In this document: positions 1 through 36,962 of the stretch, piece after piece
How positions within the stretch are numbered: position 1 is the first letter of the stretch
Layout of the letters: every line of letters begins with the position of its first letter
From: a virus
IMG/VR virus record: IMGVR_UViG_3300027715_000021
DNA length: 36,962 bases
Reading direction: 5' to 3' (one strand)
Notes under the pieces: model-generated
Databases searched by the model: none
Told to the model about the DNA's origin: nothing
The model's input: the letters and a program-made list of their open reading frames with translations, nothing else
Program-made: the position numbers and the translations under genes

Positions 1-225
1 TGGAGGAGATGAGTTAGATGAAACTAATAATACACAATAAAACAAATTTAAAAAATAGTGAAATAGTAAAATATATAAATCAAGCTTTATTCGAAATTGA
101 AAATAATGATGCAAAAGATAATTATAAATGGAGAATATTTGAATTTAAAGATGGTATGAAACTAGAAACTTGTTTGAATAAAAAAAGTAGAACATTTTTA
201 TTACATGAATAAAGGAGTTGAGTTA
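1..225. repeat. Terminal direct repeat or circular-assembly overlap, identical to 36738..36962
   Basis: The window start tggaggagatgagttagatg recurs at 36738 and matches through to the window end. ORF 18..212 equals ORF 36755..36949 (offset 36737). Confidence 0.95.
18..212 (+). CDS. Hypothetical small phage protein (64 aa)
   Basis: ORF with a GGAGG-type RBS upstream. No recognisable motif. It is the same gene as 36755..36949 because of the overlap. Confidence 0.6.
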   Translation: MKLIIHNKTNLKNSEIVKYINQALFEIENNDAKDNYKWRIFEFKDGMKLETCLNKKSRTFLLHE

Positions 226-2572: not shown

Positions 2573-2773
2573 ATGAAAGAATTTAAAATTGATATAACTA
2601 TAGATAAATATAAATATAATAACGACATAGTTAAAAGTTTATTAAATGAAATTATATTACAGAATAATCTTGATATAAATAAATTTGATATAAAAACTAA
2701 TGTAGAACATAATTATAAATATATTGATAAAGTATTAATAAATTTTATATTTAATTTAAAGGAAGTGATATAA
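2573..2773 (+). CDS. Hypothetical protein (66 aa)
   Basis: Track ORF whose stop overlaps the TerS start. Confidence 0.5.
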   Translation: MKEFKIDITIDKYKYNNDIVKSLLNEIILQNNLDINKFDIKTNVEHNYKYIDKVLINFIFNLKEVI

Positions 2774-3144
2774 TGCTAACACCTAAACAAAGTATGTTTG
2801 TTAAAGAGTACTTGATAGATTTAAATGCAACACAGGCTTGTATAAGATGTGGATATAGTTCTAATACAGCTAAAGAGCAAGGTTGCAGATTGTTAACCAA
2901 TGCTAACATAAAAGAAGCTATACAAAAAGGTATGGATAAAAGAGCTAATAAAACAGAAATAACAGCTGAATGGATACTCAATGGAATAAAAGATGTTATT
3001 AATAATAGTACGCAAGAAAATAGCAAATTAAAAGGCTATGAATTACTTGGAAAACATCTTAAACTATTCACAGAAAAGCAAGAAGTTATTTCAGATACTA
3101 CATTAACAGTCAACTTTAATATACCAAGACCAAAGGAAGAATAA
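2773..3144 (+). CDS. terS: Terminase small subunit
   Basis: The N-terminus LTPKQSMFVKEYLIDLNATQACIRCGYS..TAKEQGCRLL is the typical Terminase_2 HTH signature. It lies directly upstream of TerL. Confidence 0.85.
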   Translation: MLTPKQSMFVKEYLIDLNATQACIRCGYSSNTAKEQGCRLLTNANIKEAIQKGMDKRANKTEITAEWILNGIKDVINNSTQENSKLKGYELLGKHLKLFTEKQEVISDTTLTVNFNIPRPKEE

Positions 3145-3146
3145 TT

Positions 3147-4553
3147 ATGCAAATAGATATAGACTATAAACCTAATAATAAACAAGAATTATTTCATTCC
3201 TGTAATGCAGATGAATGTGTATATGGAGGAGCTAAAGGTGGAGGTAAGAGTTGTGCATTAGTTATGGAAGCATTAGCTTATGGATTAGAAAATCCAAGAG
3301 CTGATATGTATATATTTAGGGAAACATATGATGATTTAGAAGCAAATATAATAAAAGAATGGAAAGCTAAAGTTTCTAAAGAATTATATGAGTTTAATGA
3401 AACAAAACACTTTGCTACACTAATAAATGGAACTACAGTAAAATTTAGATATATAAGAAATTTTATAGATGCAGAAAGTTATCAAGGACGTTCAATGGAT
3501 TGGATAGGAGTTGATGAATTAACTAAGCATGAAAAAAGAAGTATACAAATATTACTTTCTTGTTTAAGGTCTGCTAAAGGATTCAAACCAAGATTTAGAG
3601 CAACTTGTAATCCAGGCGGTATTGGACATGCTTGGGTTAAAGAAATGTATATAGATGCTACCAACTATGGATTAAATCCAGTAATAGATGAATTAACAGG
3701 ATTAAATAGAGTATTTATTCCTGCTAAAGTGTATGATAATACTATTCTTGTAAAAAATGACCCTAATTATATTAAAAGACTTGAAAATCTACCTGAAAAT
3801 CAAAAGAAAGCTTTTTTATATGGCGATTGGGATATATTTGAAGGACAATACTTTACAGAGTTTAAAAGAGATGTACACGTTATACAACCTTTTGTAATAC
3901 CAGAGCATTGGAATAGATACATTGCACTTGATTATGGGCTTGACATGTTAGCATGTTTATGGATAGCAATAGATGAACAAGACAGAGCTTATGTATATAA
4001 AGAACTATACCAAAATAATTTGATAATATCTGAAGCAGCTGCTAGAATACTTGAAGTAACAGACAAAGATAAAATAAAGAAAAGATACGCACCACCAGAT
4101 TTATGGAATAGAAGACAAGAGACAGGAGATAGTGCAGAAGACATATTTAGAAAGAATGGTGTAGTTTTACACAAAAGTAATAATAATCGTGTTATGGGCT
4201 GGTATGCAGTCAAAGAACACTTAAAGATAGAACTAAGTAGAGATGAACAAACAGGTAAAGAAATAGAAACATCTAAACTGAAGATATTTAGTAACTGTAC
4301 TAACTTAATAAGAACATTACCTCAGTTGCAGCATGATGAACGTAATCCAAATGATGTAAGTAACACACCACATGAACTAACACACATAAATGATGCATTA
4401 AGAGGTTTTTGCATAGAAAGAACACATCCTACTAAAACAGTAATTGAAGATGAGTTGTATGAGATTAATAAAGCTAAGAACAAATACAGAGATAAAGTAA
4501 AAGGATTAGCAGGTAAGAGTGCTAGTAGAAGTTTTATAAACTATGGGGGTTAA
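3147..4553 (+). CDS. terL: Terminase large subunit
   Basis: Walker A GGAKGGGKS, Walker B WIGVDELT, and a C-terminal RNaseH-like nuclease region (IALDYGLDMLACLW). Confidence 0.95.
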   Translation: MQIDIDYKPNNKQELFHSCNADECVYGGAKGGGKSCALVMEALAYGLENPRADMYIFRETYDDLEANIIKEWKAKVSKELYEFNETKHFATLINGTTVKFRYIRNFIDAESYQGRSMDWIGVDELTKHEKRSIQILLSCLRSAKGFKPRFRATCNPGGIGHAWVKEMYIDATNYGLNPVIDELTGLNRVFIPAKVYDNTILVKNDPNYIKRLENLPENQKKAFLYGDWDIFEGQYFTEFKRDVHVIQPFVIPEHWNRYIALDYGLDMLACLWIAIDEQDRAYVYKELYQNNLIISEAAARILEVTDKDKIKKRYAPPDLWNRRQETGDSAEDIFRKNGVVLHKSNNNRVMGWYAVKEHLKIELSRDEQTGKEIETSKLKIFSNCTNLIRTLPQLQHDERNPNDVSNTPHELTHINDALRGFCIERTHPTKTVIEDELYEINKAKNKYRDKVKGLAGKSASRSFINYGG

Positions 4554-6532: not shown

Positions 6533-7198
6533 ATGGATAACAAATTTATATATGAGTACTTAACTAAACTAACAGAAAAATTAAATACTAAACAAGAAAA
6601 ATTTATTGATAAACAAGAAAAAGTGTATGATAAATTAGAAACACAGTTAATAAATAATATAAAAGATATAAAAAAAGAATTAGATGATAAAACACAACAC
6701 AAAGAAATATTTATGTATAGACTTATGGAAAAAATGAAAAACTATCATATAAAAGATGGTTATTGGTATTACGAAGATAAAAAACTAGTTAAAGCGGAAG
6801 CGACAGATGGTAAAGATGGTATTAATGGCAAAGATGGTAAAGATGGATTAAACGGTAAAGATGGGCGTAATGGAGTAGATGGAAGAAACGGAAGAGATGG
6901 AAAAGATGGAAAAGATGGAAAAAAAGGTGCTGATGGATTAAACGGTGCTGATGGACTAACACCAGTTTTTACTGAAACAGAAACTGAAACTTTAACAGCA
7001 TATGAAAAAGCGAAGGTTGAAATAATAAAAAATAATAATAAATATAAATTAAAATTTTCTATACCTAAAGGATTAGCTGGACATAATGGACCAAAAGGCG
7101 ATTCTGTAAAATATGAAGAAATAACATACGAAGAATGGTTATCAAGGAAAAATGCTGGAACTTTAGATGAATTTACAATTTATTATGAAGGGTTGTGA
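6533..7198 (+). CDS. Collagen-like repeat protein (fibre stalk)
   Basis: Seventeen uninterrupted G-X-Y triplets (residues 93..143, nt 6809..6961), an N-terminal coiled-coil-like region and a C-terminal PKGLAGHNGPKGD. Confidence 0.85.
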   Translation: MDNKFIYEYLTKLTEKLNTKQEKFIDKQEKVYDKLETQLINNIKDIKKELDDKTQHKEIFMYRLMEKMKNYHIKDGYWYYEDKKLVKAEATDGKDGINGKDGKDGLNGKDGRNGVDGRNGRDGKDGKDGKKGADGLNGADGLTPVFTETETETLTAYEKAKVEIIKNNNKYKLKFSIPKGLAGHNGPKGDSVKYEEITYEEWLSRKNAGTLDEFTIYYEGL

Positions 7199-10419: not shown

Positions 10420-11259
10420 ATGGCTATAAATTTAGCAACAAACTACGAAGCGAAAGTAGACGAAAAATTTAAACAATTATCATTATCAAAAGCATTCACT
10501 AATTCAAGTTACACTTGGTTAAATGCAAGTGCAATCGTTGTAAATGGAAGAACAACAGTAGCAATGAACGATTATTCATTAACTGGTTCTACTAGATACG
10601 GTACTGCATCAGAATTAGGTAACACTGTTCAAACTATGTTACTTACAAAAGATAGAAGTTTCACATTTACAATAGATAAAAAATCTAAAGATGACACTAA
10701 TGGAACAATATTCGAAGCAGGTAAAGCTTTAAAAGAACAACAAGAACAAGTAATTGTACCTGAAATAGATGCATATACATTTGGAGTAATGGGTACAGCT
10801 GCTGTTGCAAATGGTGGTACTGCTACTGCTGCAATAACTGCTAGTAATGCATACGAAAAATTCTTAGATGGGCAAATATTCTTAGGAAATAATTTAGTTC
10901 CAACTGAAGGATTAGTTGCTGCAATATCTTATAGTTTTTATAAATTTATAAAATTAGATTCTAGTTTTATGTTAGCATCTGAAATTGCAATGGAAAAAAG
11001 AATAAATGGTATGGTAGGTGAAGTAGATGGAGTTAAACTTGTAAAAGTTCCTAGTTCTAAATTACCAACTAACTGTGCATTTATAATTGCACATCCAATG
11101 GCTACTGTAGCTGCTAATAAATTAGAAGATTTTACAATTCATCAAAATCCACCAGGAATATCTGGAAGTTTAGTTGAAGGTAGAGTAAGATATGATGCAT
11201 TTGTTTTAAATAACAAAGTAAACGCATTATATATGCACTTAACTGCTGTAGTATCTTAA
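10420..11259 (+). CDS. Major capsid protein (putative)
   Basis: The position after the scaffold gene, a strong RBS, non-biased composition, and a stabilising hairpin after the stop codon. Confidence 0.7.
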   Translation: MAINLATNYEAKVDEKFKQLSLSKAFTNSSYTWLNASAIVVNGRTTVAMNDYSLTGSTRYGTASELGNTVQTMLLTKDRSFTFTIDKKSKDDTNGTIFEAGKALKEQQEQVIVPEIDAYTFGVMGTAAVANGGTATAAITASNAYEKFLDGQIFLGNNLVPTEGLVAAISYSFYKFIKLDSSFMLASEIAMEKRINGMVGEVDGVKLVKVPSSKLPTNCAFIIAHPMATVAANKLEDFTIHQNPPGISGSLVEGRVRYDAFVLNNKVNALYMHLTAVVS

Positions 11260-11270
11260 TTTATACCTTG

Positions 11271-11288
11271 AGGGAGTGAAAACTCCCT
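11271..11288 (+). terminator. GC-rich hairpin with GAAA tetraloop after the capsid gene (attenuator or mRNA stabiliser)
   Basis: agggagt-gaaa-actccct forms a 7-bp stem. There is no T-run, so it is probably a partial terminator or processing barrier. Confidence 0.45.
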
Positions 11289-11312
11289 TAATAATAAGTT
11301 AAGGAGGATTAT

Positions 11313-12230
11313 ATGTATAAAGATAAAACAATTTTAATAACAGGTGGTACAGGAAGTTTTGGACAAGCTATGACTGAAAGGTTATTACAAGAAGAAGTAA
11401 AAGAAATAAGAATATTTTCTAGAAATGAAAAAAATCAATGGGAAATGAAAAAGAAATTTAACGATAGCAGATTAAAATTTATAATTGGAGATATTAAAGA
11501 ATATAATGCAGTAAATAAAGCGGTAGAAAATGTAGACTATGTATTCCATTCAGCTGCTTTAAAACATGTCTTAATATGTCAAGAAAACCCTTTTGAGGCT
11601 ATAAACACTAATGTATTAGGTAGTGAAAATGTTATACTTGCTTCTATAAAAAACAAAGTAGAAAAATTAGTATGCTTAAGTACAGATAAAAGTGCAAATG
11701 CAAGTACAACTTATGGAAGTACAAAGTATTTAATGGAATGTATGTGTAAAGATATAGATAGTAAAGATACTAAAATCATATTAACAAGATATGGCAACGT
11801 ATTAGGCTCAAGTGGTAGTATAATACCGCTGTTTAAAGAACTTAAAAGGCAAAATAAACCACTTACAATAACTAATAGAAACAACACACGTTTTTTTATG
11901 CAAATGCATGAAGCTATTGATTTAGTATTGTATGCTTTAGAAAATGGAAATAATAAAGATATGTTTGTTTATAATAATAAAAGTGCAGATGTTGGAATGG
12001 TTGCAGATTGTATAAGTGATAATCAAATAATAATAGGTAGTGAATGTATAGAAAAAACAGATGAAGCATTACTTACAGTATCTGAACTTAATCATAGTGA
12101 ATTAGCTGATAATTATTTTAGAATAAATGAAAATATAAAATCTAATATAAAATATACAGATTCATTAACAAGTGATAATGCACCAAAATTTAATAAAGAA
12201 GAACTAAAAACTATAATAGATAGTTTATAA
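11313..12230 (+). CDS. NAD(P)-dependent UDP-sugar 4,6-dehydratase (PseB/FlaA1/CapD-like SDR)
   Basis: Rossmann motif ILITGGTGSFG, the motifs IRIFSRNEKNQ, DYVFHSAALKHV and LSTDKS...YGSTK (YxxxK), and TRYGNVLGSSGSIIPLF. All are typical of polysaccharide-biosynthesis dehydratases. Confidence 0.8.
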   Translation: MYKDKTILITGGTGSFGQAMTERLLQEEVKEIRIFSRNEKNQWEMKKKFNDSRLKFIIGDIKEYNAVNKAVENVDYVFHSAALKHVLICQENPFEAINTNVLGSENVILASIKNKVEKLVCLSTDKSANASTTYGSTKYLMECMCKDIDSKDTKIILTRYGNVLGSSGSIIPLFKELKRQNKPLTITNRNNTRFFMQMHEAIDLVLYALENGNNKDMFVYNNKSADVGMVADCISDNQIIIGSECIEKTDEALLTVSELNHSELADNYFRINENIKSNIKYTDSLTSDNAPKFNKEELKTIIDSL

Positions 12231-12239
12231 GGAGGATTT

Positions 12240-14585
12240 ATGGATACATCAGTTGTAATAATCAGTTGCGATAAAAATAAAGATATACACGAACCTTTTT
12301 ATAAATTATATAGTAAATATTGGAAACATAATTTTAAAACTTATATTGTAATGGAAGAACAAAACTGTGAATATTTTAATACAATAAAAGTGAAAGGTAG
12401 TTGGACATCAAGAGTTAGACAAGCACTTGAACAAATTGACACAAAATATGTTATATTTTTGTTAGATGACTTCTTTTTTCATAATAAAGTAGATAATAAT
12501 AAAATAATAGAAATTTTGAAGTCCTACGATGACAATACAGCCGTTTATAATTTAGAATTGAGCAATCACACTAAAGATACTAAAAAGTCTTTAAATGGCT
12601 TTATAAAGCGAAATAACAAGGAGCCTTATTTAAACAGTTGTCAACCTAGTATTCATGATAGAATTAAGTTAATTGAGAGACTTAAAGAAGATAAAACGCC
12701 TTGGGAATGGGAATTAACAGAAGTAGACAGTAAATATGATTTTTATATAAATAACAAAGAGTTAATATTTGATATTGGATATAATGAAACTAAAAAACCA
12801 TGGTGTTTAGTACAAGGAAAATGGAGTATTGAAACTAAAAACTTATTTGAAAAAGAAAATATAAAAGTAGATTATAGTAAACGTGGATTTATAGATTATG
12901 ATTTGTCAATTATAATACCATATTATAAAACAAAAGAATTAACAATTGAGTTATTAGATAACTTGACTAAACAACTTAAACCTAATGTTGAAATTATTTT
13001 AATAGATGATGGATGTAATGAAAAAGCATTTGATAAGTATCCTATAAAAGTAATACATCAAGAAAATAGTGGTGTATCGAGTGCTAGAAATAAAGGTATT
13101 GATATATGCAAAGGTTATAATGTAGTATTTATTGATTCTGATGATAATGTAAGTGAAAACTATATAGATAAAATATTAAATAAAATTAATAAAAATGAAT
13201 TTGATTATTGTTATTTTAGTTGGAAATCAATTGGAGTTACTAAAGAAGATTTTATTATAAATGATAAACCACCTGAATGGAACACATCAGTTTGGAATTG
13301 CATATATAAAAGAGATTTAATAGGAAATATTAGATTTAATGAAAATAAAACGATGTCTGAAGATACAGAATTTAATGAAAAAGTATTAAAAGGCAAAAAA
13401 GAAAATATAACTGATATACTTTACTATTATCATAATGGTAGAGAAAATAGTTTAACTAGTAGATATAGAAATAACGAAATAACTATGAATGAAACTATAA
13501 AATCACAAATAATAGTATACCGTTCATATACAAGTAAAATTGGTGGTGTTGAAACTGCTATTTATAATATGTGTAATTTATTAAGAGATAAATATGAAAT
13601 AATGTTTGTATATGATAATGCTGACCCTATACAATTAAATAGATTAAAAAAATTAGTTAAATGTGTTAAATTTATTGGTCAAAATTTTAAATCTGATTTA
13701 TTTTTAATTTATAGTTTTAATGATTGTACTATTTTAAACAATGTAGTATCAAAAGAATTTATACAACATATTTGTTGCAATGTAGAAGAATTAAGTCAAC
13801 CATATATTAAACATGATAAAATAACTAAGTTTACATCTGATAGTATAGCTGGAGCTAAAGCATTTAAAAGAAAATTTGGTATAGAATGTGATTTATTGCA
13901 TAATTTATTTGATTGTACAGAACCTAAAAAAGTATTAAATTTAATGAGTGCTACAAGACTTAGTTCTGAAAAAGGCTATTATAGAATGAAAGCACTGGCT
14001 AAAAGAATGAACGAAAGAGGACTTTTATTTGAATGGACAGTTTTTACTAATGATTTACCAGATGAAATAATAGATGGTTTTGTATTTAGAGAACCAAGAC
14101 TTAATGTAGTAGATTATATGTGGAATAAAGACTATATATTACAACTTAGCGATAGTGAAAATTGGGGTTGTACAATAACTGAGAGTTTAGATAGAAATGT
14201 TCCAGTAGTTGTAACCGACTTTAATAGTGCATATGAACAAGTAGAAGATAAAGTTAATGGATTTATACTTAAAAGAGATTTAAGCAACTTAGATGAAGTA
14301 ATTGACAACATGTATAGTAAAGACTTAAAAGGCTATAAACATATAAAAAAATATAATGTATCTGAATGGTTATATTTATTAAAAAACTTAAAAGAAACTA
14401 AAAGTAATTATGTATATAATCCAGAAGAAATTGAAGTTGATACATATAACACTTATATAACATTAGCATTAGTAAGAGATGAACAAGGTAATCAAATAGA
14501 ACCTAATAATGAAATAAATATACGAAATATCTCAAGAGTAAGAGAATTATTACGATTTAATTTAATAAAAAGAAAGGAGTTGTAA
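12240..14585 (+). CDS. Multidomain glycosyltransferase: N-terminal GT-A-like domain, GT2 domain, GT4/GT1 domain and a short C-terminal tail domain
   Basis: The N-terminal domain has the DXD-like motif FLLDDFFF. The GT2 core is LSIIIPYYK...ILIDDGCNE...SSARNKG...FIDSDD. The GT4 EX7E motif is ENWGCTITE, followed by VPVVVTD. Confidence 0.85.
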   Translation: MDTSVVIISCDKNKDIHEPFYKLYSKYWKHNFKTYIVMEEQNCEYFNTIKVKGSWTSRVRQALEQIDTKYVIFLLDDFFFHNKVDNNKIIEILKSYDDNTAVYNLELSNHTKDTKKSLNGFIKRNNKEPYLNSCQPSIHDRIKLIERLKEDKTPWEWELTEVDSKYDFYINNKELIFDIGYNETKKPWCLVQGKWSIETKNLFEKENIKVDYSKRGFIDYDLSIIIPYYKTKELTIELLDNLTKQLKPNVEIILIDDGCNEKAFDKYPIKVIHQENSGVSSARNKGIDICKGYNVVFIDSDDNVSENYIDKILNKINKNEFDYCYFSWKSIGVTKEDFIINDKPPEWNTSVWNCIYKRDLIGNIRFNENKTMSEDTEFNEKVLKGKKENITDILYYYHNGRENSLTSRYRNNEITMNETIKSQIIVYRSYTSKIGGVETAIYNMCNLLRDKYEIMFVYDNADPIQLNRLKKLVKCVKFIGQNFKSDLFLIYSFNDCTILNNVVSKEFIQHICCNVEELSQPYIKHDKITKFTSDSIAGAKAFKRKFGIECDLLHNLFDCTEPKKVLNLMSATRLSSEKGYYRMKALAKRMNERGLLFEWTVFTNDLPDEIIDGFVFREPRLNVVDYMWNKDYILQLSDSENWGCTITESLDRNVPVVVTDFNSAYEQVEDKVNGFILKRDLSNLDEVIDNMYSKDLKGYKHIKKYNVSEWLYLLKNLKETKSNYVYNPEEIEVDTYNTYITLALVRDEQGNQIEPNNEINIRNISRVRELLRFNLIKRKEL

Positions 14586-14588
14586 AAA

Positions 14589-14780
14589 ATGGCTAAAAAA
14601 GTAGTTAAAACAGAACCTATAATAAAAACAGAAACTGTTAAAATAGAAACAAAATATATAACATTAACTATGGTAAGAGATGATTTAGGAAATCAAATAG
14701 AAGAAAATAAAGAAATAATTAATTTATCAAAAGATAGAATAAAATTATTATTAAGTTTTAATTTAATAAAGGAGGTATAA
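14589..14780 (+). CDS. Small protein (63 aa), a paralogue of the C-terminal tail of the glycosyltransferase
   Basis: KYITLTMVRDDLGNQIEENKEIINLSKDRIKLLLSFNLIK aligns with TYITLALVRDEQGNQIEPNNEINIRNISRVRELLRFNLIK at the end of 12240..14585. Confidence 0.6.
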   Translation: MAKKVVKTEPIIKTETVKIETKYITLTMVRDDLGNQIEENKEIINLSKDRIKLLLSFNLIKEV

Positions 14781-14781
14781 A

Positions 14782-15678
14782 ATGACAGCACAAGAAATAT
14801 TTAATATATCAATGAATTTAATTGATGTTGATCCAACAAATGCTACAGAAACATTAACATATCAAACTAAATCAATAAATTTAATAAATTTAATTCAAAA
14901 TGATATATGTAAAACAGCACCAATATATAAAACATTAGATATACCTATGCAATCAGTTACACCAATTAATTCAATAATAGATTATAAAGAACATAATGAA
15001 GAAGATGAAATACTAGAAAGTACAGTTGCAAAAGCATATTCATTTGATATTATAGGACCTGCTACTGTATATGTAGAAGATACAATTGATAGCATTACTT
15101 GGAATATATTAGACACTTTAACAATAGCAAATACAGTTACTACTTATACTAATTATAAAGGTAGTATATTACCAACAATTGGAGCTGTTAAGACAAGAAT
15201 TAGATTTAGCGGAAGTTATTTTTATACATATACAAACGTAGCATTATATAAAGAAAACTTTTATACTGTACCTAAATTTGGAAGTTATAAAAAGGTTGAA
15301 TTACCAACAGATTTTTTAAGTATATATAAAGTATATGAAGAATATACACCTGGACAATATAGACTATATGATAAATTTAAATTAGAAAATACAAGTGATT
15401 TATATATACCATATGAATTTAAAGGGAATATAAGATTAGTATATAGATTTATACCTACTTTTATATCTGAATTAACTGAAACGATAGCATTTAATGACCA
15501 AATATGTTCAACAGTAATAGCTACAGGATTAGCATTTTATTTATTTATAAACGAAAATACAAATGTTGCTAATTTTTATAATCAACAATATGAAGTAATG
15601 AAAAGTCAAATTAAATTTAAACAACCAGTTGGTATTTCAAATAAAAAAGATTATTACGATGCTAAACTAAGTTTTTAG
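14782..15678 (+). CDS. Virion structural protein (function unknown, 298 aa)
   Basis: Track ORF translationally coupled within the late operon. No diagnostic motif. Confidence 0.5.
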   Translation: MTAQEIFNISMNLIDVDPTNATETLTYQTKSINLINLIQNDICKTAPIYKTLDIPMQSVTPINSIIDYKEHNEEDEILESTVAKAYSFDIIGPATVYVEDTIDSITWNILDTLTIANTVTTYTNYKGSILPTIGAVKTRIRFSGSYFYTYTNVALYKENFYTVPKFGSYKKVELPTDFLSIYKVYEEYTPGQYRLYDKFKLENTSDLYIPYEFKGNIRLVYRFIPTFISELTETIAFNDQICSTVIATGLAFYLFINENTNVANFYNQQYEVMKSQIKFKQPVGISNKKDYYDAKLSF

Positions 15679-20581: not shown

Positions 20582-23500
20582 ATGGGTTTTAATTTTGATA
20601 AACTTGAAAAAGATAAATCATACAATGATACTAACGATATAAAAAATATGATTAAAACAGTACGTTCTAAACCTATAAATGAAACTATTACAAAACCAAA
20701 AATTAATGAAACGCCTCTTTATACTGGTAAAAAAGCTAGTACATTTGAAAAGATAACATTACCTTTTAGTAGTTTATTAGGTGGTGCTACTGCTGGATTA
20801 AGAGGATTAATAAATTTACCAAGTACTATAGCGGGAACGGATCCTACAATAGGAAATATAACTACATTTGAAGAAAGAGTTAAACAGATACAAGATCAAG
20901 TATCTTCACCTTTAAAAATAACTTCTGAAGTTACAGGTGGCATTGGACAAATGGTACCTTCAATTGGGGCTGCTTTTATAAATCCAGTGTTAGGTATTGC
21001 AACAGGCGCTGGAACTTCTGCTGGAGAAAATTATAGAACATCTATAGAAGAAGGTAAAACTAAAAATCAAGCTAGGGCTTATGGATTAGCTACTGGGGTT
21101 TTAGAAGGAACTTTACAAAAAGCACTTGGTGGAATAAATGTATTTGGAAAAAGTGGTGCTAGTAAATTAATTGGCAAAGAATTAGATGATGTAATTTCTA
21201 AAATCGCTAAAACAAATACTGGTAAAGAAATTGCAAAAGGACTTGCTAGTTCTGGGAGTGAATTTTCTCAAGAATATATTCAATCTGCTATTAATCCAGT
21301 TGTTAGAAATTTAACTTTAGATGAGAATAATGAATTTAAACCAGTATCTAAAGAGGCTTTGTATAGTGGAGTATTAGGTGCACTTACTTCAGGAGTATTA
21401 AATTCTCCTGGAATTTCTAAAAAAATAAAAACAGGAATACAAACAGATATACAAAATAAACAAACATTAAAACAATCTCAAATACCTTTAATACAACCAC
21501 AAATCCAATCTAATCAAGTTTTATCTATAAATAAACAAACTACTCAACAACCTTTACAAAACGCTTTAAATAATGATATAGTGCAACCTCAAGTAAAACA
21601 AACTGATAAAGTTGCTCAACTATTAACTAGTAAACCAAAAGAAATAAAACCAACAATAGGTCAAGAAATTGACAAAACATATCAAGCATTAGTAAATAAA
21701 GGCGCCCCAGTTGATAAACTTGCAAAAGAAACTGGACAAAAAGAACTTAAATTTGCTTATGATAAAATGTTAGGTTCAGAGGGGGAAGGACAAAATACTA
21801 TTGGGAATTTTCAAACTAATTTACAAGGTAACAAAATAGGTAAATCTATAAAAGAAATATGGGAACCTATAAATGAAAGTGGAAAAACACAAGAATTTAG
21901 TGATTATTTATTGCATAAACATAATATTGATAGAATGGTACAAGAAAAACCAGTATTCGGAGAAAATGTTACAGCTCAAGATAGTGCTAATATAGTATCA
22001 AATTATGAGAAAACTAATCCTGAATTTATTGAATGGTCTAAAGATATTAACAACTTTAATAAAAATGAACTTCAAAATATGGTAGATGCGGGAATAACAA
22101 GTAAAGAAATTCAAAATTACTTAAATGAAACTTATGATAATTATGTTAGAATACAAAGAGAACAAACTAAAACACAAGGTCCAGTTGGATATACACAAAC
22201 AGGAGTTAAAGTAAATAATCCTATACAAAAAGCAAAAGGTGGTAATCAAAATATATTACCATTAGAACAAAGTATGGCTGAACAAGCTTTAAAAACTAGA
22301 AATGCGATAAGAAGAAATCTATTTGGTAAAGAACTATTAAAAGTAACTGGTGGAGTAAAAACAGATACAACAGATGTAACTAGTCCAGTAAATGAAAAAA
22401 ATGGAGAATATACATTTACAGTATATGAAAATGGTCAACCGGTAGTGATACCACTTAGTAAAGAATTATATGATAGTATAAAACCTAAAGTTAAGAGTGG
22501 AGTAGAAGATTTAACTGCTGTAAAAGCAGTGCAAGGTTTAAGTAGATTACAAAGAGATTTAATAACTGCTAAAAATCCTATATTTACTATAACTAACTTT
22601 TTAAAAGATTTTCAAGATGGTATATTTAATTCTAAATATCCAACTAGTTTTGTTAAAAATTATCCTAAAGCTGCTTATGAAATGCTTACTAAATCAGATA
22701 ATTGGCAACAATATGAAGGCCTTGGAGGCTCACAAAATACATTTTTTGATTATGATACAGGGATTGTTAAAGATAAAGGCGTAATTGGAACTTTAGGACA
22801 ATGGATTGAAAAAGCAAATAACTTTGTAGAACAAGCACCAAGATTTAGTGAGTTTTTAAGTACATTAGAAAAAGGAAAGTCTTTAAATGAAGCAATGTAT
22901 AATGCTGCTGAAGTAACAACTAATTTCAAACGTGGTGGAGATATTGCTAAAGCAATAAATAGAAATGGTGTTAACTTTTTTAATGCATCTATACAGGGTT
23001 TTGATAAATTTAGAAGAAACTTTACAGAATTAGAAAATGCTACTGATTATATAAAATTATTATCTAAAGTAGCTATTATTGGTGTTGGACCCGCTTTAAT
23101 TAATGATATACTTCTTTCTGATAATGAAGAATACAAAGATTTAGATGATAGAACAAAAGATGGATATTATTTATTTCCACAAGGAAATGGTAAGTTTATT
23201 AAAATACCTAAAGGAAGAATGTTAAGTATATTTGGAAGTGCTGCTAGAAGAACTTTAGAAGCATCAAAAGGAAATGAACAAGCATTTAAAGGTTTTGGTG
23301 GATTTGCAACTCAACAAGTGGCACCTATTAATCCATTTGAAAGTAACTTATTATCTCCAATTGCTCAAGTTTCTACTAATAAATCTTGGATGGGTACACC
23401 AATAGTATCACAATCATTACAAAATTTATATCCAGGCATGCAATCTGATGAAAAAACATCAAGTTTAGCTAAAAAAATAGGTGAAAGTTTAAATATATCA

Positions 23501-24676
23501 CCTAAAAAAATAGATTACTTAATTAAAGGATATACTGGAGGTATTGGACAAGTAGTTATGCCTAAATTAACACCTCAAGCTGAACAAGGAATATTAACAA
23601 ATAAATTTCAAACTGATAGTGTTTATAGTAGTAAAACTGGTAGTGATTTTTATGATACTTTAGATAAAAAAAATACTGAGAGTGCTAATGAAAAAATAAA
23701 GAAAAATCTTGAAAAAGGAACTACTACTTATACTAGTTTAGAAAGTAAATATTTAACTTCTAAAAGTTCTGAAATATCTGATTTATATAAACAAAAAAAA
23801 GCAATTCAAAATTCTGATATTACTGATAAAGAAAAACAAGAACAAACAAGAAAAATACAAATAGAAATAAATAAAAAAGAAAAAGAAGCATTAAATGAAC
23901 TTAAAAATCCTGATAGAGTAGATTACTTTAAAAAATTACCTGAAATAGAAAATTCTAAAACAGATGAAAACAAAACTGTTTTAAAAGGAAAATTAATATT
24001 AGATAGTAATTATTCTAATAAAAACAAAATAGAATTTATGGATGAAATGTTATCTGATGAACAAAAAAAAGAAGTTAATATATTAGGTAATAAATTAAAT
24101 ATACCAATTTTAGATTCTTATAGAGTAATATCTACTATTAAAAATGCTTCAGGAGATAAAGATAATGCAGATAAAACAATAAGCGGTTCATCTACCGCTA
24201 AACAAGTTTTAGGTGTGTTAAATATGAATTTAGATAATAATAAGAAAAATGAAATATTAGATTATTTAACTGATTCTAAAGAACCAATAAAAATAGAACA
24301 AATAGATAATATAAAAAAAGATGAACAAACTTTAACAAATTATTTTAGTTTATCTAAAGAGGCACAAAATAAAGTATCTAATAATAAATTATTAGGAATA
24401 GATGAAAATGAATCAATTGATTATTTTAAAAAAATAAGTGATATTAAATCTGATAAAGATATTAATGGTAAAACTATAACTAACAGTAAAAAAAATAAAG
24501 TGAAAAAATTAATTGGTAGTTTAAATTTATCCGTACCACAAAAAATAATATTAGAAAAACAATCTGGTTATGATAACAAATCTAATTATGGGACTATTTA
24601 TAATTATATTGGTAAATTAAATATTAGTAATACTGAAAAAAATAAAATATTAAAAGATATGGATATTATAAAATAA
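20582..24676 (+). CDS. Giant virion protein (1364 aa), of tape-measure or internal-ejection type
   Basis: The N-terminal part has Gly/Ala-rich hydrophobic segments (GGATAGLRGLI, GGIGQMVPSIGAAFINPVLGIATGAG), followed by a long helical Lys-rich C-terminal half. It is the largest ORF of the genome. Confidence 0.55.
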   Translation: MGFNFDKLEKDKSYNDTNDIKNMIKTVRSKPINETITKPKINETPLYTGKKASTFEKITLPFSSLLGGATAGLRGLINLPSTIAGTDPTIGNITTFEERVKQIQDQVSSPLKITSEVTGGIGQMVPSIGAAFINPVLGIATGAGTSAGENYRTSIEEGKTKNQARAYGLATGVLEGTLQKALGGINVFGKSGASKLIGKELDDVISKIAKTNTGKEIAKGLASSGSEFSQEYIQSAINPVVRNLTLDENNEFKPVSKEALYSGVLGALTSGVLNSPGISKKIKTGIQTDIQNKQTLKQSQIPLIQPQIQSNQVLSINKQTTQQPLQNALNNDIVQPQVKQTDKVAQLLTSKPKEIKPTIGQEIDKTYQALVNKGAPVDKLAKETGQKELKFAYDKMLGSEGEGQNTIGNFQTNLQGNKIGKSIKEIWEPINESGKTQEFSDYLLHKHNIDRMVQEKPVFGENVTAQDSANIVSNYEKTNPEFIEWSKDINNFNKNELQNMVDAGITSKEIQNYLNETYDNYVRIQREQTKTQGPVGYTQTGVKVNNPIQKAKGGNQNILPLEQSMAEQALKTRNAIRRNLFGKELLKVTGGVKTDTTDVTSPVNEKNGEYTFTVYENGQPVVIPLSKELYDSIKPKVKSGVEDLTAVKAVQGLSRLQRDLITAKNPIFTITNFLKDFQDGIFNSKYPTSFVKNYPKAAYEMLTKSDNWQQYEGLGGSQNTFFDYDTGIVKDKGVIGTLGQWIEKANNFVEQAPRFSEFLSTLEKGKSLNEAMYNAAEVTTNFKRGGDIAKAINRNGVNFFNASIQGFDKFRRNFTELENATDYIKLLSKVAIIGVGPALINDILLSDNEEYKDLDDRTKDGYYLFPQGNGKFIKIPKGRMLSIFGSAARRTLEASKGNEQAFKGFGGFATQQVAPINPFESNLLSPIAQVSTNKSWMGTPIVSQSLQNLYPGMQSDEKTSSLAKKIGESLNISPKKIDYLIKGYTGGIGQVVMPKLTPQAEQGILTNKFQTDSVYSSKTGSDFYDTLDKKNTESANEKIKKNLEKGTTTYTSLESKYLTSKSSEISDLYKQKKAIQNSDITDKEKQEQTRKIQIEINKKEKEALNELKNPDRVDYFKKLPEIENSKTDENKTVLKGKLILDSNYSNKNKIEFMDEMLSDEQKKEVNILGNKLNIPILDSYRVISTIKNASGDKDNADKTISGSSTAKQVLGVLNMNLDNNKKNEILDYLTDSKEPIKIEQIDNIKKDEQTLTNYFSLSKEAQNKVSNNKLLGIDENESIDYFKKISDIKSDKDINGKTITNSKKNKVKKLIGSLNLSVPQKIILEKQSGYDNKSNYGTIYNYIGKLNISNTEKNKILKDMDIIK

Positions 24677-29917: not shown

Positions 29918-30359
29918 TTATACCTCTAATTTATATATTGTTATATCATAATCATCAAATATGTTTATAATGATATCTTCTACTATTTCCCAATTTCCAT
30001 TTGCAATACCACAACCATATTTATATGGCATACATATACTTAATTCATTTTCAATTGCAAATTCTTTTATTTCTTTAAAACACTTTTTTATCATTTCATA
30101 ATCTGTATCATAATTAGGTTTTTGACTAAAACAATTTGCTATAATTTTATTATCTTTATAATAATGAACTGTTCCTTTTAAATTATTGTAACTATGCTTA
30201 AAATTATTACAATATAAACTATAAAATTCTACTAAAGATTTATTTTTATTTGCTAATTGTTTAGCCACTCCTCCTCCGCATATGACCATTAATATTAACT
30301 TGATGACATATAATATCTTCTTTAGATTCTAACAAATCATCTTTAATTATTTTAATCAT
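29918..30359 (-). pseudogene. Macro-domain (ADP-ribose binding or hydrolase) protein, interrupted by a +1 frame change inside the conserved N-terminal motif
   Basis: ATG at 30359 reads MIKIIKDDLLESKEDIICHQVNING, then HMRRRSG and a stop at 30261..30263. The +1 frame gives VICGGGVAKQLA...SICMPYKYGCGIANGNWEIV (track ORF 29918..30289). Confidence 0.6.
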
Positions 30360-31431
30360 TATTCACCTCACAAAATTCATTATCTTTTAATATATAAAAA
30401 GTATCTTCTTTTATTTTAATACCATCTACTTTTTCGCATTTTACATTTTTAGGAAAATAATAACCTTCTTTATTTCTATCATATTCTGCTAATACTAACC
30501 AAGTACCTTTTATACCTTTTGATTTACCTTTGTATCCAATATTAGCACCTATTCCATATTTACCATTGATTTCAACCTTTGAAGAGTCTCCTGAAGTAGC
30601 AACCTGTGAATAGTATCCTGAAGTAGCAACCTGTGAATAGTCTCCTGAAGTAGCAACCTGTGAAGAGTATCCTGAAGTAGCAACCTGTGAATAGTATCCT
30701 GAAGTGGCAACCTGTGAATATTTTCCTGAAGTAGCAACCTGTGAATAGTCTCCTGAAGTGGCAACCTTTGAAGAGCCTCCTGAAGTGGCAACCTTTGAAT
30801 AGTTTCCTGAAGTAGCAACCTTTGAAGAGTTTCCTGAAGTAGCAACCTGTGAAGAGCCTCCTGAAGTGGCAACCTTTGAATAGTATCCTGAAGTAGCAAC
30901 CTTTGAATAGTTTCCTGAAGTAGCAACCTTTGAATAGTTTCCTGAAGTAGCAACCTTTGAATAGTTTCCTGAAGTAGCAACCTTTGAATAGTTTCCTGAA
31001 GTAGCAACCTTTGAAGAGTCTCCTGAAGTAGCAACCTGTGAAGAGCCTTCATTATATTTTATATTATCAGAATCAGTTTTTTCTATTTTACATTTATTCC
31101 AAATAAAATTAAAACTTGCTTTTATAAATAATGATAAATCTAATTTAGCATTTATTTTTATTTTATTAGTACTTATTTTAGTATCTTCATCACTATTTCT
31201 ATCTATTTTACCTAAAGATTCCACTTCTGTAAAAACACAATCGTTTAAATCATAATAGTTTAATGTGTCAAGTGGGTTTTCACAAAAATGAAATCCATTA
31301 TCGCATATACTAGGAGATTCATCTTGTTCATAAATTTTACCTACTTCATATTGAAAATCTCTACAAGTCATATCTTTATTCATTGCTTTATAACCTTTTA
31401 TTTTATCCATTTTAATTCCTTCTCCTTTCAT
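30352..31431 (-). CDS. Repeat protein: conserved N-terminal globular domain plus about 18 tandem 9-aa repeats
   Basis: The N-terminus GYKAMNKDMTCRDFQYEVGKIYE...CDNGFHFCENPLDTLNYY is followed by (S/Y)S(K/Q)VATSGx units. An alternative start is at 31410. Confidence 0.8.
   Translation of the reverse strand: MKGEGIKMDKIKGYKAMNKDMTCRDFQYEVGKIYEQDESPSICDNGFHFCENPLDTLNYYDLNDCVFTEVESLGKIDRNSDEDTKISTNKIKINAKLDLSLFIKASFNFIWNKCKIEKTDSDNIKYNEGSSQVATSGDSSKVATSGNYSKVATSGNYSKVATSGNYSKVATSGNYSKVATSGYYSKVATSGGSSQVATSGNSSKVATSGNYSKVATSGGSSKVATSGDYSQVATSGKYSQVATSGYYSQVATSGYSSQVATSGDYSQVATSGYYSQVATSGDSSKVEINGKYGIGANIGYKGKSKGIKGTWLVLAEYDRNKEGYYFPKNVKCEKVDGIKIKEDTFYILKDNEFCEVNND
30562..31044 (-). repeat. Coding tandem repeat of 27 nt, 17 full copies plus 1 partial
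   Basis: Near-identical 27-nt units (plus-strand form tcctgaagtagcaacctttgaatagtt). Variation is confined to 3 codon positions per unit. Confidence 0.95.
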
Positions 31432-31432
31432 A

Positions 31433-32176
31433 TTAAGCCTCGTAATGTTCTTTTAATTGCACTATTATATCACTTCCATAGTCATTTTCGCATATTTCTA
31501 TAAATTCTTTTACTGTAAAGTTTTCTTTTAAATCTATGTCTTTATTTTTAACAAAACTTTCTCGTCCCATTTCACAACTTCCTGTTAATAAACTATGCCA
31601 ATCATAAAATAATTCTCCAATATATTTTTCATCTTTTTTAAATATTTCTGTAAATTCTTTTATTTTTTCTTCTATATTCATATTAGTAAATATTTTATTT
31701 CTTAAACTTTCTACTGATTCTCTTAAAGTTTTTCCATGAGAGAATAAATTTTTACCTTTTGAAATATAACAACTTTCTAAAGTTAAATCATTATTTACTA
31801 TAAAAGCTTTTGCTACGTTATTTTTTATTTTTGTTATTATAGTAGGTATATAATCTACTATATATATTAATTCTCCATTTATAGATTTTACGCCAGAGCC
31901 AGAGCCATAGCCATCGCCATAGCCATCGCCAGAGCCAGAGCCATAGCCAGAGCCAGAGCCATAGCCATCGCCAGAGCCAGAGCCATAGCCATAGCCATAG
32001 CCATAGCCATCGCCATAGCCATAGCCATCGCCAGAGCCAGAGCCATAGCCAGAGCCAGAGCCATCGCCAGAGCCATCGCCAGAGCCATCGCCATAGCCAT
32101 CGCCAGAGCCAGAGCCATCGCCATAGCCATCGCCATAGCCAGTTTCTATTTTTAAAAATTCTTCTATTTTAGTCAT
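31433..32176 (-). CDS. Protein with an N-terminal (Gly-Tyr/Asp/Ser) dipeptide-repeat tract and a C-terminal globular domain
   Basis: The ATG at 32176 lies 8 nt after an aaggag RBS (the track uses GTG at 32185). The 41 G-X dipeptides are followed by VKSINGELIYIVDYIPTII... Confidence 0.75.
   Translation of the reverse strand: MTKIEEFLKIETGYGDGYGDGSGSGDGYGDGSGDGSGDGSGSGYGSGSGDGYGYGDGYGYGYGYGSGSGDGYGSGSGYGSGSGDGYGDGYGSGSGVKSINGELIYIVDYIPTIITKIKNNVAKAFIVNNDLTLESCYISKGKNLFSHGKTLRESVESLRNKIFTNMNIEEKIKEFTEIFKKDEKYIGELFYDWHSLLTGSCEMGRESFVKNKDIDLKENFTVKEFIEICENDYGSDIIVQLKEHYEA
31892..32140 (-). repeat. Coding 6-nt periodic repeat (GGC-TAT / GGC-GAT / GGC-TCT), about 41 units
   Basis: The plus strand reads as runs of gccata, gccatc and gccaga hexamers. 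It is the most GC-rich tract of the genome. Confidence 0.95.
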
Positions 32177-32188
32177 TTTAATCACTCC

Positions 32189-36550: not shown

Positions 36551-36754
36551 ATGAAATATAAAGAGATCACATTAATACTACTAAAAAATATAGATATTGA
36601 ATGTGTAGATAGCGAACGATATAAAAATTGCAAATGGAATAAGAAAGCAAAATATAATGAAAATGGAATTTGCATAAATGCACATGATTTAGAAGATATT
36701 TGTGGAAAATGTTTGTTGAAAAATATAAAAGAAGTTATGGAGGAGATGAGTTAG
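36551..36754 (+). CDS. Hypothetical Cys-containing protein (67 aa)
   Basis: Track ORF, tightly coupled to its neighbours. Confidence 0.5.
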   Translation: MKYKEITLILLKNIDIECVDSERYKNCKWNKKAKYNENGICINAHDLEDICGKCLLKNIKEVMEEMS

Positions 36755-36962
36755 ATGAAACTAATAATACACAATAAAACAAATTTAAAAAATAGTGAAA
36801 TAGTAAAATATATAAATCAAGCTTTATTCGAAATTGAAAATAATGATGCAAAAGATAATTATAAATGGAGAATATTTGAATTTAAAGATGGTATGAAACT
36901 AGAAACTTGTTTGAATAAAAAAAGTAGAACATTTTTATTACATGAATAAAGGAGTTGAGTTA
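36738..36962. repeat. Terminal direct repeat or circular-assembly overlap, identical to 1..225
   Basis: See the feature at 1..225. Confidence 0.95.
36755..36949 (+). CDS. Hypothetical small phage protein (the same gene as 18..212)
   Basis: Identical sequence inside the terminal overlap. Confidence 0.6.
   Translation: MKLIIHNKTNLKNSEIVKYINQALFEIENNDAKDNYKWRIFEFKDGMKLETCLNKKSRTFLLHE

Follow-up and report, generated by a model that had tools for sequence, protein, structure and literature searches.

The window analysed here, IMG/VR virus record IMGVR_UViG_3300027715_000021 (36,962 nt, the whole stretch of DNA), carries a two-gene sugar cassette directly behind its major capsid gene (10420..11259, plus strand; 279 aa; PHROG 422 major head protein, E 1.7e-54). 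The first gene (11313..12230, plus strand; 305 aa) encodes a predicted UDP-N-acetylhexosamine (UDP-HexNAc) 4,6-dehydratase and the second (12240..14585, plus strand; 781 aa) a protein in which three glycosyltransferase (GT) modules are fused and followed by a C-terminal mini-domain. Open reading frames (ORFs), Pfam profiles, relatives in the PDB and sequence motifs agree with this description, which an initial annotation of the DNA had already given for the dehydratase and the three GT modules, missing only the mini-domain of about 45 aa. The cassette is an accessory insertion located precisely at the junction between the capsid gene and the next virion gene, and its presence co-varies with a three-residue, Ser-ended extension of the capsid protein. 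The place inside the virion gene block, the lack of recognised lysogeny genes, the correlation with the capsid tail and the precedent of the mycobacteriophages favour the capsid protein as the acceptor. We therefore lean towards the reading that the cassette serves the cytoplasmic O-glycosylation of a virion protein late in infection, with the major capsid protein as the most likely target and the glycan at or close to its C-terminal Ser.

Enzymes encoded by the cassette

The product of 11313..12230 is assigned by its sequence as a UDP-HexNAc 4,6-dehydratase of the Polysacc_synt_2 (CapE/FnlA/PseB) group of short-chain dehydrogenases. Residues 7–271 span positions 1–291 of the 293 in the PF02719 profile (E 4.6e-77, 259.5 bits against a cut-off of 20.2), and the closest relatives of solved structure, aligned over about 280 residues, are the FnlA-type 4j2o (6e-79), CapE (1e-68) and FlaA1/PseB (7e-54). 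The motifs are intact, with TGGTGSFG at residues 10–17, S123-T124-D125-K126 and Y134-x3-K138. All 13 phage homologues, three of which are partial ORFs, keep the STDK and YGxxK segments, and their Rossmann motif reads either TGGTGSFG or T-GNGSFAN. The phage enzyme shares its Pfam family and the STDK and xGxxK catalytic segment (CapE numbering) with CapE, FnlA and WbjB and with PseB and FlaA1, but its C-terminus is about 35–40 residues shorter than theirs, and CapE and FnlA have a Met where it has Tyr134. It also scores below the NCBIfam equivalog cut-offs for FnlA (276 bits against 730) and PseB (242 bits against 407.75). Because of these scores and of Tyr134 in place of Met, the stereochemistry of the product is not assigned. 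The partner enzymes of the CapE- and PseB-type pathways, CapF/G and PseC/H, are not encoded by the phage, and no aminotransferase, reductase, acetyltransferase or other sugar-pathway gene was found besides the cassette in the complete genome, as expected from the earlier statement that only the first enzyme of such a pathway is carried. The dehydratase would convert UDP-GlcNAc, or a related UDP-HexNAc, to UDP-4-keto-6-deoxy-HexNAc, which would be used directly or after reduction by the dehydratase itself or by a host enzyme. It is kept beside the GT in very different phages without a downstream pathway enzyme, and a lone dehydratase of this kind raises the question of whether the GT transfers the 4-keto-6-deoxy sugar unchanged or the dehydratase has a second activity.

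The full-length AlphaFold model of the GT, built with 64 homologues, shows four globular parts without a membrane segment (mean predicted local distance difference test score, pLDDT, 91.9). Its N-terminal module (12240..12884, plus strand; aa 1–215) had been called GT-A-like, a label that the predicted structure supports at the level of the fold only. Modelled alone, the module reaches a pLDDT of 91.8 and a predicted TM score (pTM) of 0.90, and Foldseek matches the model to SpsA (E 4e-6), B4GALNT1, GT6 enzymes and Mimivirus R699 with TM scores of 0.4–0.54. The DDF motif lies at aa 76–78, with D76-D77 placed after strand 70–75 (strand 4) and E39 after strand 33–38 (strand 2), and the residues E39, R58, D77, F79, Y130 and E158 are invariant in homologues. 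The module stays under all curated Pfam and NCBIfam cut-offs, including those of Glyco_tranf_2_5 (18.3 bits against 27, E 0.002) and TIGR04440 (19.2 bits against 70, E 8e-4). It represents an uncurated family with 1,573 cluster representatives at E ≤ 1e-3, and all ten of those scanned are without any Pfam match. Since the model also matches nucleotidyltransferases (IspD) at E of about 1e-4, the transferase chemistry of this module is only inferred. In two relatives (P0010 and P0011) a second GT2 takes its place and in two others (L110 and L027) it is a separate gene, which fits an exchangeable transferase module.

The GT2 module (12903..13484, plus strand; aa 222–415), predicted to be of the inverting type, was correctly recognised, as was its DSDD motif (aa 299–302). 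It has the GT-A fold, keeps the DXD motif and matches PF00535 over aa 223–344 (E 9e-21, 74.9 bits against a cut-off of 23.3), and Q245, R283, D299, D301 and F378 are invariant in the 64 homologues. Profile comparison with the PDB gives the C-terminal GT of dGT1/GalT1 (6e-23), K4CP (2e-21) and TarS (4e-21), and Foldseek aligns the module with TarS, TarP and 6p61 at a root-mean-square deviation (rmsd) of about 3 Å over about 200 columns, with RmlT also among the best single-domain matches. The GT-B module (13497..14384, plus strand; aa 420–715) is GT4-like by Pfam, motif and fold, which is not a CAZy assignment. It matches PF00534 (E 9e-10, 38.8 bits against a cut-off of 26.4), is modelled as two Rossmann-type halves, and has conserved R573, E577, K578 and G579 together with E640-x7-E648, the EX7E motif that the initial annotation had named. 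By profile the module matches GtfA (2e-10), TarM (2e-8), BshA and WbaZ in the PDB; a single-sequence search of the PDB with the same region gave no match. As a whole, the GT finds tandem-GT polymerases as its top Foldseek matches (K4CP with E 6e-16, PmHS2 and the A. pleuropneumoniae capsule multienzyme), giant-virus multi-GT proteins among its best BFVD fold matches, and weak NCBIfam matches to TuaG, EpsD and similar proteins. Profile searches and structure prediction, both proposed with the initial annotation, thus support all three GT folds, the N-terminal one at fold level only, and every enzyme module is under purifying selection, with ratios of non-synonymous to synonymous substitution rates (dN/dS) of 0.13–0.14 against a 92%-identical relative. 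In the mechanism that we propose, the soluble GT would build a short glycan of at least three sugars. The first step, a retaining transfer to the hydroxyl of the acceptor, would most plausibly fall to the GtfA/TarM-like GT-B module, and the GT2 and N-terminal GT-A modules would lengthen the chain.

The C-terminal mini-domain (14442..14582, plus strand; aa 735–781) is predicted to have a strand-strand-helix-strand arrangement and contains an invariant R766. It has no match in Pfam or the PDB, and a profile of it run against 5.8 billion proteins returned nothing significant; the only matches of the profile are the C-termini of GT-B modules and ORF63, described below. The mini-domain always accompanies the GT-B module, even where GT-B is a separate gene, and its sequence type tracks the phage lineage more closely than catalytic-domain identity does. 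The GT-B core of the window is closest (61–64%) to those of P0002–P0004, and P0002, the one of these whose surroundings were examined, comes from a siphovirus-like contig and has a different tail type. This pattern fits a partner-specific role, in which the mini-domain may hold the GT on a phage-specific target.

ORF63 (14589..14780, plus strand; 63 aa) has its own Shine-Dalgarno sequence and is a free-standing paralogue of the mini-domain, with 45% identity to aa 718–777 of the GT (E 8e-12). Apart from the window, only the 92% relative L004 has it; L005, L107 and L108 do not. Between the window and L004 it shows no sign of purifying selection, unlike all neighbouring genes, with a dN/dS of 1.3 that is calculated from 10 substitutions (8.5 non-synonymous and 1.5 synonymous). 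The idea that ORF63 corresponds to the small post-capsid gene of relatives, so that the tail of the GT would be a borrowed capsid-binding module, was rejected in that form, since no alignment was obtained with the small ORFs of Javan246, Dulem virus 31 and XP41-N3 and the profile of the mini-domain matches nothing beyond GT-B C-termini and ORF63.

Insertion site and capsid C-terminus

The accessory nature of the cassette is evident from a comparison with relatives that lack it, a check proposed with the initial annotation. Eight IMG/VR contigs without the cassette (L113, L117, L131, L136, L144, L165, L166 and L186) share the portal, scaffold, capsid and downstream virion genes of the window at 30–60% identity. 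In all eight, the capsid gene is followed after 70–190 nt by a homologue of 14782..15678 (plus strand), the first virion gene after the cassette and the right edge of the insertion in the window.

Relatives of the GT with full length (~780 aa) form about 35 clusters at 35–92% identity, accompanied by many forms of about 560 aa without the N-terminal module. All of them come from metagenomes, the longer carrier contigs being mostly 10–60 kb and up to 127 kb in length. No near-identical DNA was found in deposited phages, and tblastn with the GT and dehydratase as queries gave no full-length relative among 50,697 phage records, where no cultured phage has the cassette; the dehydratase matches labelled as Staphylococcus phage look like bacterial cap loci. 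Nor was a paper describing this cassette found in the literature searched. The dehydratase and GT genes are adjacent in most loci examined. The pair lies behind the capsid gene in the lineage of the window (L004, L005, L107, L108, L193, L194 and L027). In siphovirus-like contigs (L006, L008, L109 and L110) it directly precedes the small terminase gene, and in large phages (L009–L011) it is found among genes for dUTPase, thymidine kinase and serine hydroxymethyltransferase (SHMT). The late co-expression with structural proteins that had been suggested therefore suits the virion block of the window and is not general. A GT gene without the dehydratase follows the capsid gene in L195 (3099–6346), L211 (3911–6179) and L221–L223. 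Variants of the cassette contain further genes for tailoring: methyltransferases in L193 and L194, with a nucleotidyltransferase-methyltransferase fusion in the latter (2757–4004), a polysaccharide pyruvyltransferase and an FrhB/FdhB-like protein in L006 (8222–9998), and two extra stand-alone GTs in L011 (10350–12031). The varied positions and gene content imply a mobile glycan-building module with tailoring options.

Recurrence of the arrangement is seen in a further podovirus-like lineage (L221–L223), where a protein made of GT2, GT-B and mini-domain is encoded directly after an unrelated capsid gene of 272–275 aa. That capsid protein ends in ...FPVATGSL. A 166–197-aa ORF precedes the GT in these contigs; in L222 its product is a small GT2-like protein, and in L221 and L223 it has no assignment.

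The capsid protein of the window ends in ...LYMHLTAVVS, the codons for LTAVVS occupying 11239..11256. To compare this end with others, capsid homologues were taken from the best 80 of more than 547 matches. In all 12 contigs in which a GT adjoins a capsid gene of the window family, the capsid protein has three extra residues and a hydrophobic-hydrophobic-Ser end (LTAVVS, GIGVIS, GTNILS, GVGVIS, GSNIIS, ANGAVS, GKALLS or AVGVIS), while none of the 69 distinct homologues without an adjoining GT has such an end, a set in which a few contigs stop soon after the capsid gene. The extension follows a conserved ...IY(V/A)H motif, after which cassette-free capsid proteins mostly end in K(S/T)A. Of the 69, 59 end in Ala (mostly HK[ST]A) and one, from Clostridium phage XP41-N3, in Ser (...LCATPS). 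In a neighbour-joining tree of the capsid proteins, calculated with the last 15 alignment columns excluded, the cassette-bearing members occupy three separate places, one of them with a cassette-free sister group, and the capsid protein of L195 is only 41–45% identical to all others. Relatives with a different GT gene, located upstream of the terminase, have other extended and Ser-containing ends (YTALSA, FTSGSM and FTSYSG). In the siphovirus-like lineage the capsid protein ends in ...TNTSTSI, and the contigs of its relatives are too short to score the presence of the cassette. The association of tail and cassette is suggestive of a C-terminal acceptor segment that goes with the GT genes, though confounded by physical linkage and by the small number of independent lineages, and we propose that the extension may be the acceptor or the recognition site.

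The initial annotation had placed a GC hairpin at 11271..11288 as the left boundary of the cassette. The hairpin is real, and it forms part of a larger stem-loop (11255..11303, plus strand) that straddles the capsid stop codon and ends at the ribosome-binding site of the dehydratase gene. The extended hairpin has a folding energy of -22.3 kcal/mol (z -5.5), which none of 200 shuffled sequences equals, and it has no U-tract. In L004, L005, L107 and L108 this position is also taken by a hairpin, but the sequence of its stem differs. It is probably a partial attenuator or an mRNA stabiliser that sets the ratio of capsid to downstream expression, and in the proposed mechanism it would keep expression of the downstream genes below that of the capsid protein. 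The dehydratase and GT genes are 9 nt apart, the GT gene is separated from the ORF behind it by 3 nt, and the gap that follows this ORF is 1 nt; promoter-like sites inside the cassette are no commoner than in shuffled sequence. One transcription unit comprising the cassette and the neighbouring structural genes, as the initial annotation had assumed, is therefore plausible.

Three observations concern other contents of the same region in relatives. In L193 (767–2445) the capsid gene is split into ORFs of 137 and 166 aa by an HNH/NUMOD4 homing-endonuclease gene, possibly as an intron or a split gene, and the C-terminal part keeps the ...GSNIIS ending. Clostridium phage XP41-N3 (L001, 6984–9431) encodes an 815-aa protein after its capsid gene, at the same junction as the cassette. 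This protein was considered as a GT and rejected, because it has a BppU_N domain; it is perhaps a head fibre. The closest relative of the GT-B module in a cultured phage is found in Butyrivibrio phage Arawn (L111, 5061–6140; 31% over about 290 aa), as a stand-alone gene between the SSB gene and early genes and near a gene annotated as CMP glycosidase, a context which hints that some members of the GT-B group may serve another purpose there.

Genome setting

An exact direct repeat of 225 nt at both ends of the window (1–225 = 36738–36962) identifies the contig as a complete phage genome, either as a circular assembly or with a terminal repeat. The unique sequence is 36,737 bp and the G+C content is about 26%. 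The plus-strand block encodes the small and large terminase subunits and a P22-type portal, then a collagen-like protein, a 630-aa fibre- or neck-like protein, a scaffold-like protein and the major capsid protein, and then the dehydratase and the GT, a run of virion proteins and an amidase endolysin. The lack of a tape-measure gene makes a podovirus-like phage probable. Profile searches of the genome ORFs scanned revealed no recognisable integrase or repressor module. No thymidylate-synthase-like hydroxymethylase, TET/5mYOX enzyme or C5-methyltransferase was found in the complete genome, including its unannotated ORFs of suitable size. As for the host, the description of the phage as Clostridium-type does not follow from its relatives, since related contigs from metagenome-assembled genomes are labelled Bacilli, Erysipelotrichaceae, Tenericutes and Clostridia.

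Several other proteins of the phage are repetitive or multidomain. The 221-aa protein encoded between the portal gene and the gene for the 630-aa protein (6533–7198) has a collagen-like Gly-X-Y stretch (Pfam Collagen, 2.7e-09) with its repeats at 6787–6954, and the 630-aa protein itself contains three copies of the motif (I/L)E.GT.AT.Y.P(Y/F). A 1,364-aa protein of the virion block (20582–24676) has an LPD38 (large polyvalent protein) domain, and its large homologues in related contigs (L108) show weak ART-PolyVal and DUF3990 matches. On the minus strand, 30352–31431 encodes a 359-aa protein in which an N-terminal DUF7666 domain is followed by about 21 tandem 9-aa Ser/Thr-rich units (S-K/Q-V-A-T-S-G-x-x), encoded by 27-nt tandem repeats at 30451–31129; it has been considered, speculatively, as a glycosylation substrate. 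Next to it, 31433–32185 (minus strand) encodes a 250-aa protein whose first ~100 residues are a low-complexity array of Gly with Ser, Asp and Tyr (GDGYGSGS...), encoded by 12- and 18-nt repeats at 31838–32183 and without a family match.

Candidate acceptors of the glycan

The homology of the enzymes alone cannot decide the acceptor, since the matches of the GT2 and GT-B modules are split between protein O-GTs and wall teichoic acid GTs. On the protein side, the best profile matches of the GT-B and GT2 modules are GtfA and dGT1, respectively, of the O-glycosylation systems of streptococcal serine-rich adhesins (GtfA/GtfB, Gtf3, dGT1). These enzymes are soluble and glycosylate Ser/Thr stepwise in the cytoplasm, and dGT1 also has fused GT modules. 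The GtfA match is limited to its C-terminal half (residues 267–471), neither the GtfB partner nor the DUF1792 module of the adhesin systems was seen in the window, and the proposed acceptor would be a single C-terminal tail rather than the long Ser-rich repeats of the adhesins.

Among phages, the closest precedent is provided by the mycobacteriophages, in which, as summarised in PMC12619734, capsid and tail-tube subunits bear glycans at their C-termini (Freeman et al. 2023). The GTs of actinobacteriophages such as Che8 and Corndog are phage-encoded and cytoplasmic, they are sometimes accompanied by methyltransferases, and the genes are accessory (Freeman et al. 2023, Cell Host Microbe 31:1216). 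The Che8 GT is a fold-level match to the window GT (Foldseek E 1e-9) with 14% identity and no sequence-level homology. Unlike the actinobacteriophages, the window combines three fused GT modules with a nucleotide-sugar dehydratase at ~26% G+C, and the phage is known only from metagenome contigs. Chloroviruses and mimiviruses decorate their own capsid independently of host glycosylation; PBCV-1, for example, has the multidomain GTs A064R and A111/114R together with virus-encoded GDP-mannose and UDP-glucose 4,6-dehydratases. The window phage likewise encodes a nucleotide-sugar 4,6-dehydratase and a multidomain GT, but the former are giant viruses of eukaryotes whose double-jelly-roll capsids are unrelated and whose GT families and domain orders differ, and the likeness is in logic, not in ancestry.

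Modification of the virion, as first suggested from the position of the genes, gains from the accessory insertion at the capsid junction, from the recurrence behind an unrelated capsid gene and from the Ser-ended tails. Several points weigh against it. The acceptor is inferred from correlation. Independent lineages are few, about three or four, and the 3' end of the capsid gene is physically linked to the cassette, so that the C-terminal codons could travel with it by recombination. The location of the pair upstream of the terminase or among nucleotide-metabolism genes in other phages indicates that adjacency to the capsid gene is not required. Apart from its short tail the capsid protein is without a Ser/Thr-rich stretch, and no convincing acceptor stretch of this kind was found in the virion proteins besides that tail. 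The constant pairing of the mini-domain with GT-B may mean that it is a structural part of the enzyme and not a targeting device. Finally, TarS, TarP, RmlT and TarM, all GTs of wall teichoic acid, are equally close neighbours in fold and in sequence.

The last point leads to the alternative already raised in the initial annotation, that the enzymes modify a glycopolymer of the host wall (wall teichoic acid, a secondary cell-wall polysaccharide or a capsule precursor) from the cytoplasmic side. Such a modification could hide the receptor and thereby save progeny from being trapped on debris or on infected cells, or it could exclude competing phages. TarS, TarP, TarM and RmlT are soluble cytoplasmic enzymes of GT-A or GT-B fold with similar scores, for TarS with GT2 and for TarM with GT-B at the E values given above, and the weak TuaG and EpsD matches point in the same direction. 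TarP is the lysogenic-conversion gene of a temperate phage and illustrates that phages can carry GTs for wall teichoic acid. Dehydratases of the CapE/FnlA type normally supply capsule and O-antigen pathways, and the variant in L006 includes a polysaccharide pyruvyltransferase; pyruvylation is typical of secondary wall polymers. However, the Tar enzymes and RmlT are separate single-GT enzymes, whereas the GT of the window is fused. It also differs from lysogenic-conversion GTs of the TarP or Gtr type in that it is encoded between capsid and connector-like genes, inside the virion block and not at a lysogenic-conversion locus, in a complete genome with no recognised integrase or lysogeny module. 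Action on the wall would leave the Ser-ended capsid extension and the recurrence behind two unrelated capsid genes unexplained, and the pair has been kept in very different phages, for whose hosts one would expect different wall polymers. We regard modification of the wall as rather unlikely.

Modification of some other acceptor appears unlikely as well. The GT may act on another phage protein (a tail fibre, the collagen-like fibre or the repeat protein of 30352..31431) or on a host protein, or it may be a polymerase of a free or lipid-primed polysaccharide. The genome does encode a collagen-like protein and the Ser/Thr-rich repeat protein with its ~21 copies, and in large phages a long distance separates the pair from recognised capsid genes. 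However, the other cassette-bearing loci examined, which represent part of each genome, did not contain the repeat protein, and the correlation with the capsid C-terminus points to the capsid protein. The bifunctional tandem-GT polymerases, K4CP, PmHS2 and the A. pleuropneumoniae multienzyme, head the full-length fold matches, but K4CP aligns only with an rmsd of about 16 Å, and the match stems from the presence of two GT-A domains in tandem rather than from a shared polymerase architecture.

Hypermodification of phage DNA, in which the GTs would glycosylate hydroxymethylated or hydroxylated pyrimidines against restriction, is very improbable. In its favour, according to Pyle et al. (bioRxiv 10.1101/2023.12.21.572611), the nearest solved structure of phage DNA-modifying GT-A enzymes is also TarP, and secondary GTs and epimerases can occur in the clusters that encode them; L009–L011 have the pair among dUTPase, thymidine kinase and SHMT genes and Arawn has its GT-B homologue beside SSB and CMP glycosidase genes. 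Against it, DNA-modifying GTs as a rule cluster with base-hydroxylating enzymes (Pyle et al., bioRxiv 10.1101/2023.12.21.572611), and the complete genome, like the siphovirus-like loci, is without a recognisable hydroxymethylase, TET/5mYOX or C5-methyltransferase, which makes DNA glycosylation unlikely here, and a 4,6-dehydratase is not mentioned in the two DNA-glycosylation papers searched.

O-glycosylation of the capsid protein thus remains the reading that we favour. Going further, and more tentatively, the cassette can be pictured as a portable, self-sufficient capsid-glycosylation module in low-G+C phages of gut or rumen Firmicutes-type hosts. In this picture a minimal dehydratase would make a donor of the 6-deoxy-HexNAc type without its usual partners, the tri-modular GT would initiate and extend a glycan on a three-residue, Ser-ended tag gained with the cassette, and the mini-domain would be an adaptor that recognises the capsid. 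GTs of phages, virion glycosylation in actinobacteriophages and the self-glycosylation of giant viruses are already known; the fused tri-modular GT with a lone dehydratase, the recurrence behind capsid genes of low-G+C phages and the co-varying Ser-ended tail are new. To our knowledge, virion glycosylation has been demonstrated among phages only for actinobacteriophages, and otherwise for giant viruses of eukaryotes. If the picture is correct, the cassette would be the first virion-glycosylation system outside these groups and would provide a defined pair of tag and enzyme that could be transplanted to coat the capsids of other phages. If the cassette does glycosylate the capsid, the phages of low-G+C bacteria would widely share self-glycosylation as an accessory trait. 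Virion glycosylation alters how antibodies, and possibly host defences, see phages, and the two-gene system with its three-residue capsid tag might serve to shield therapeutic phages.

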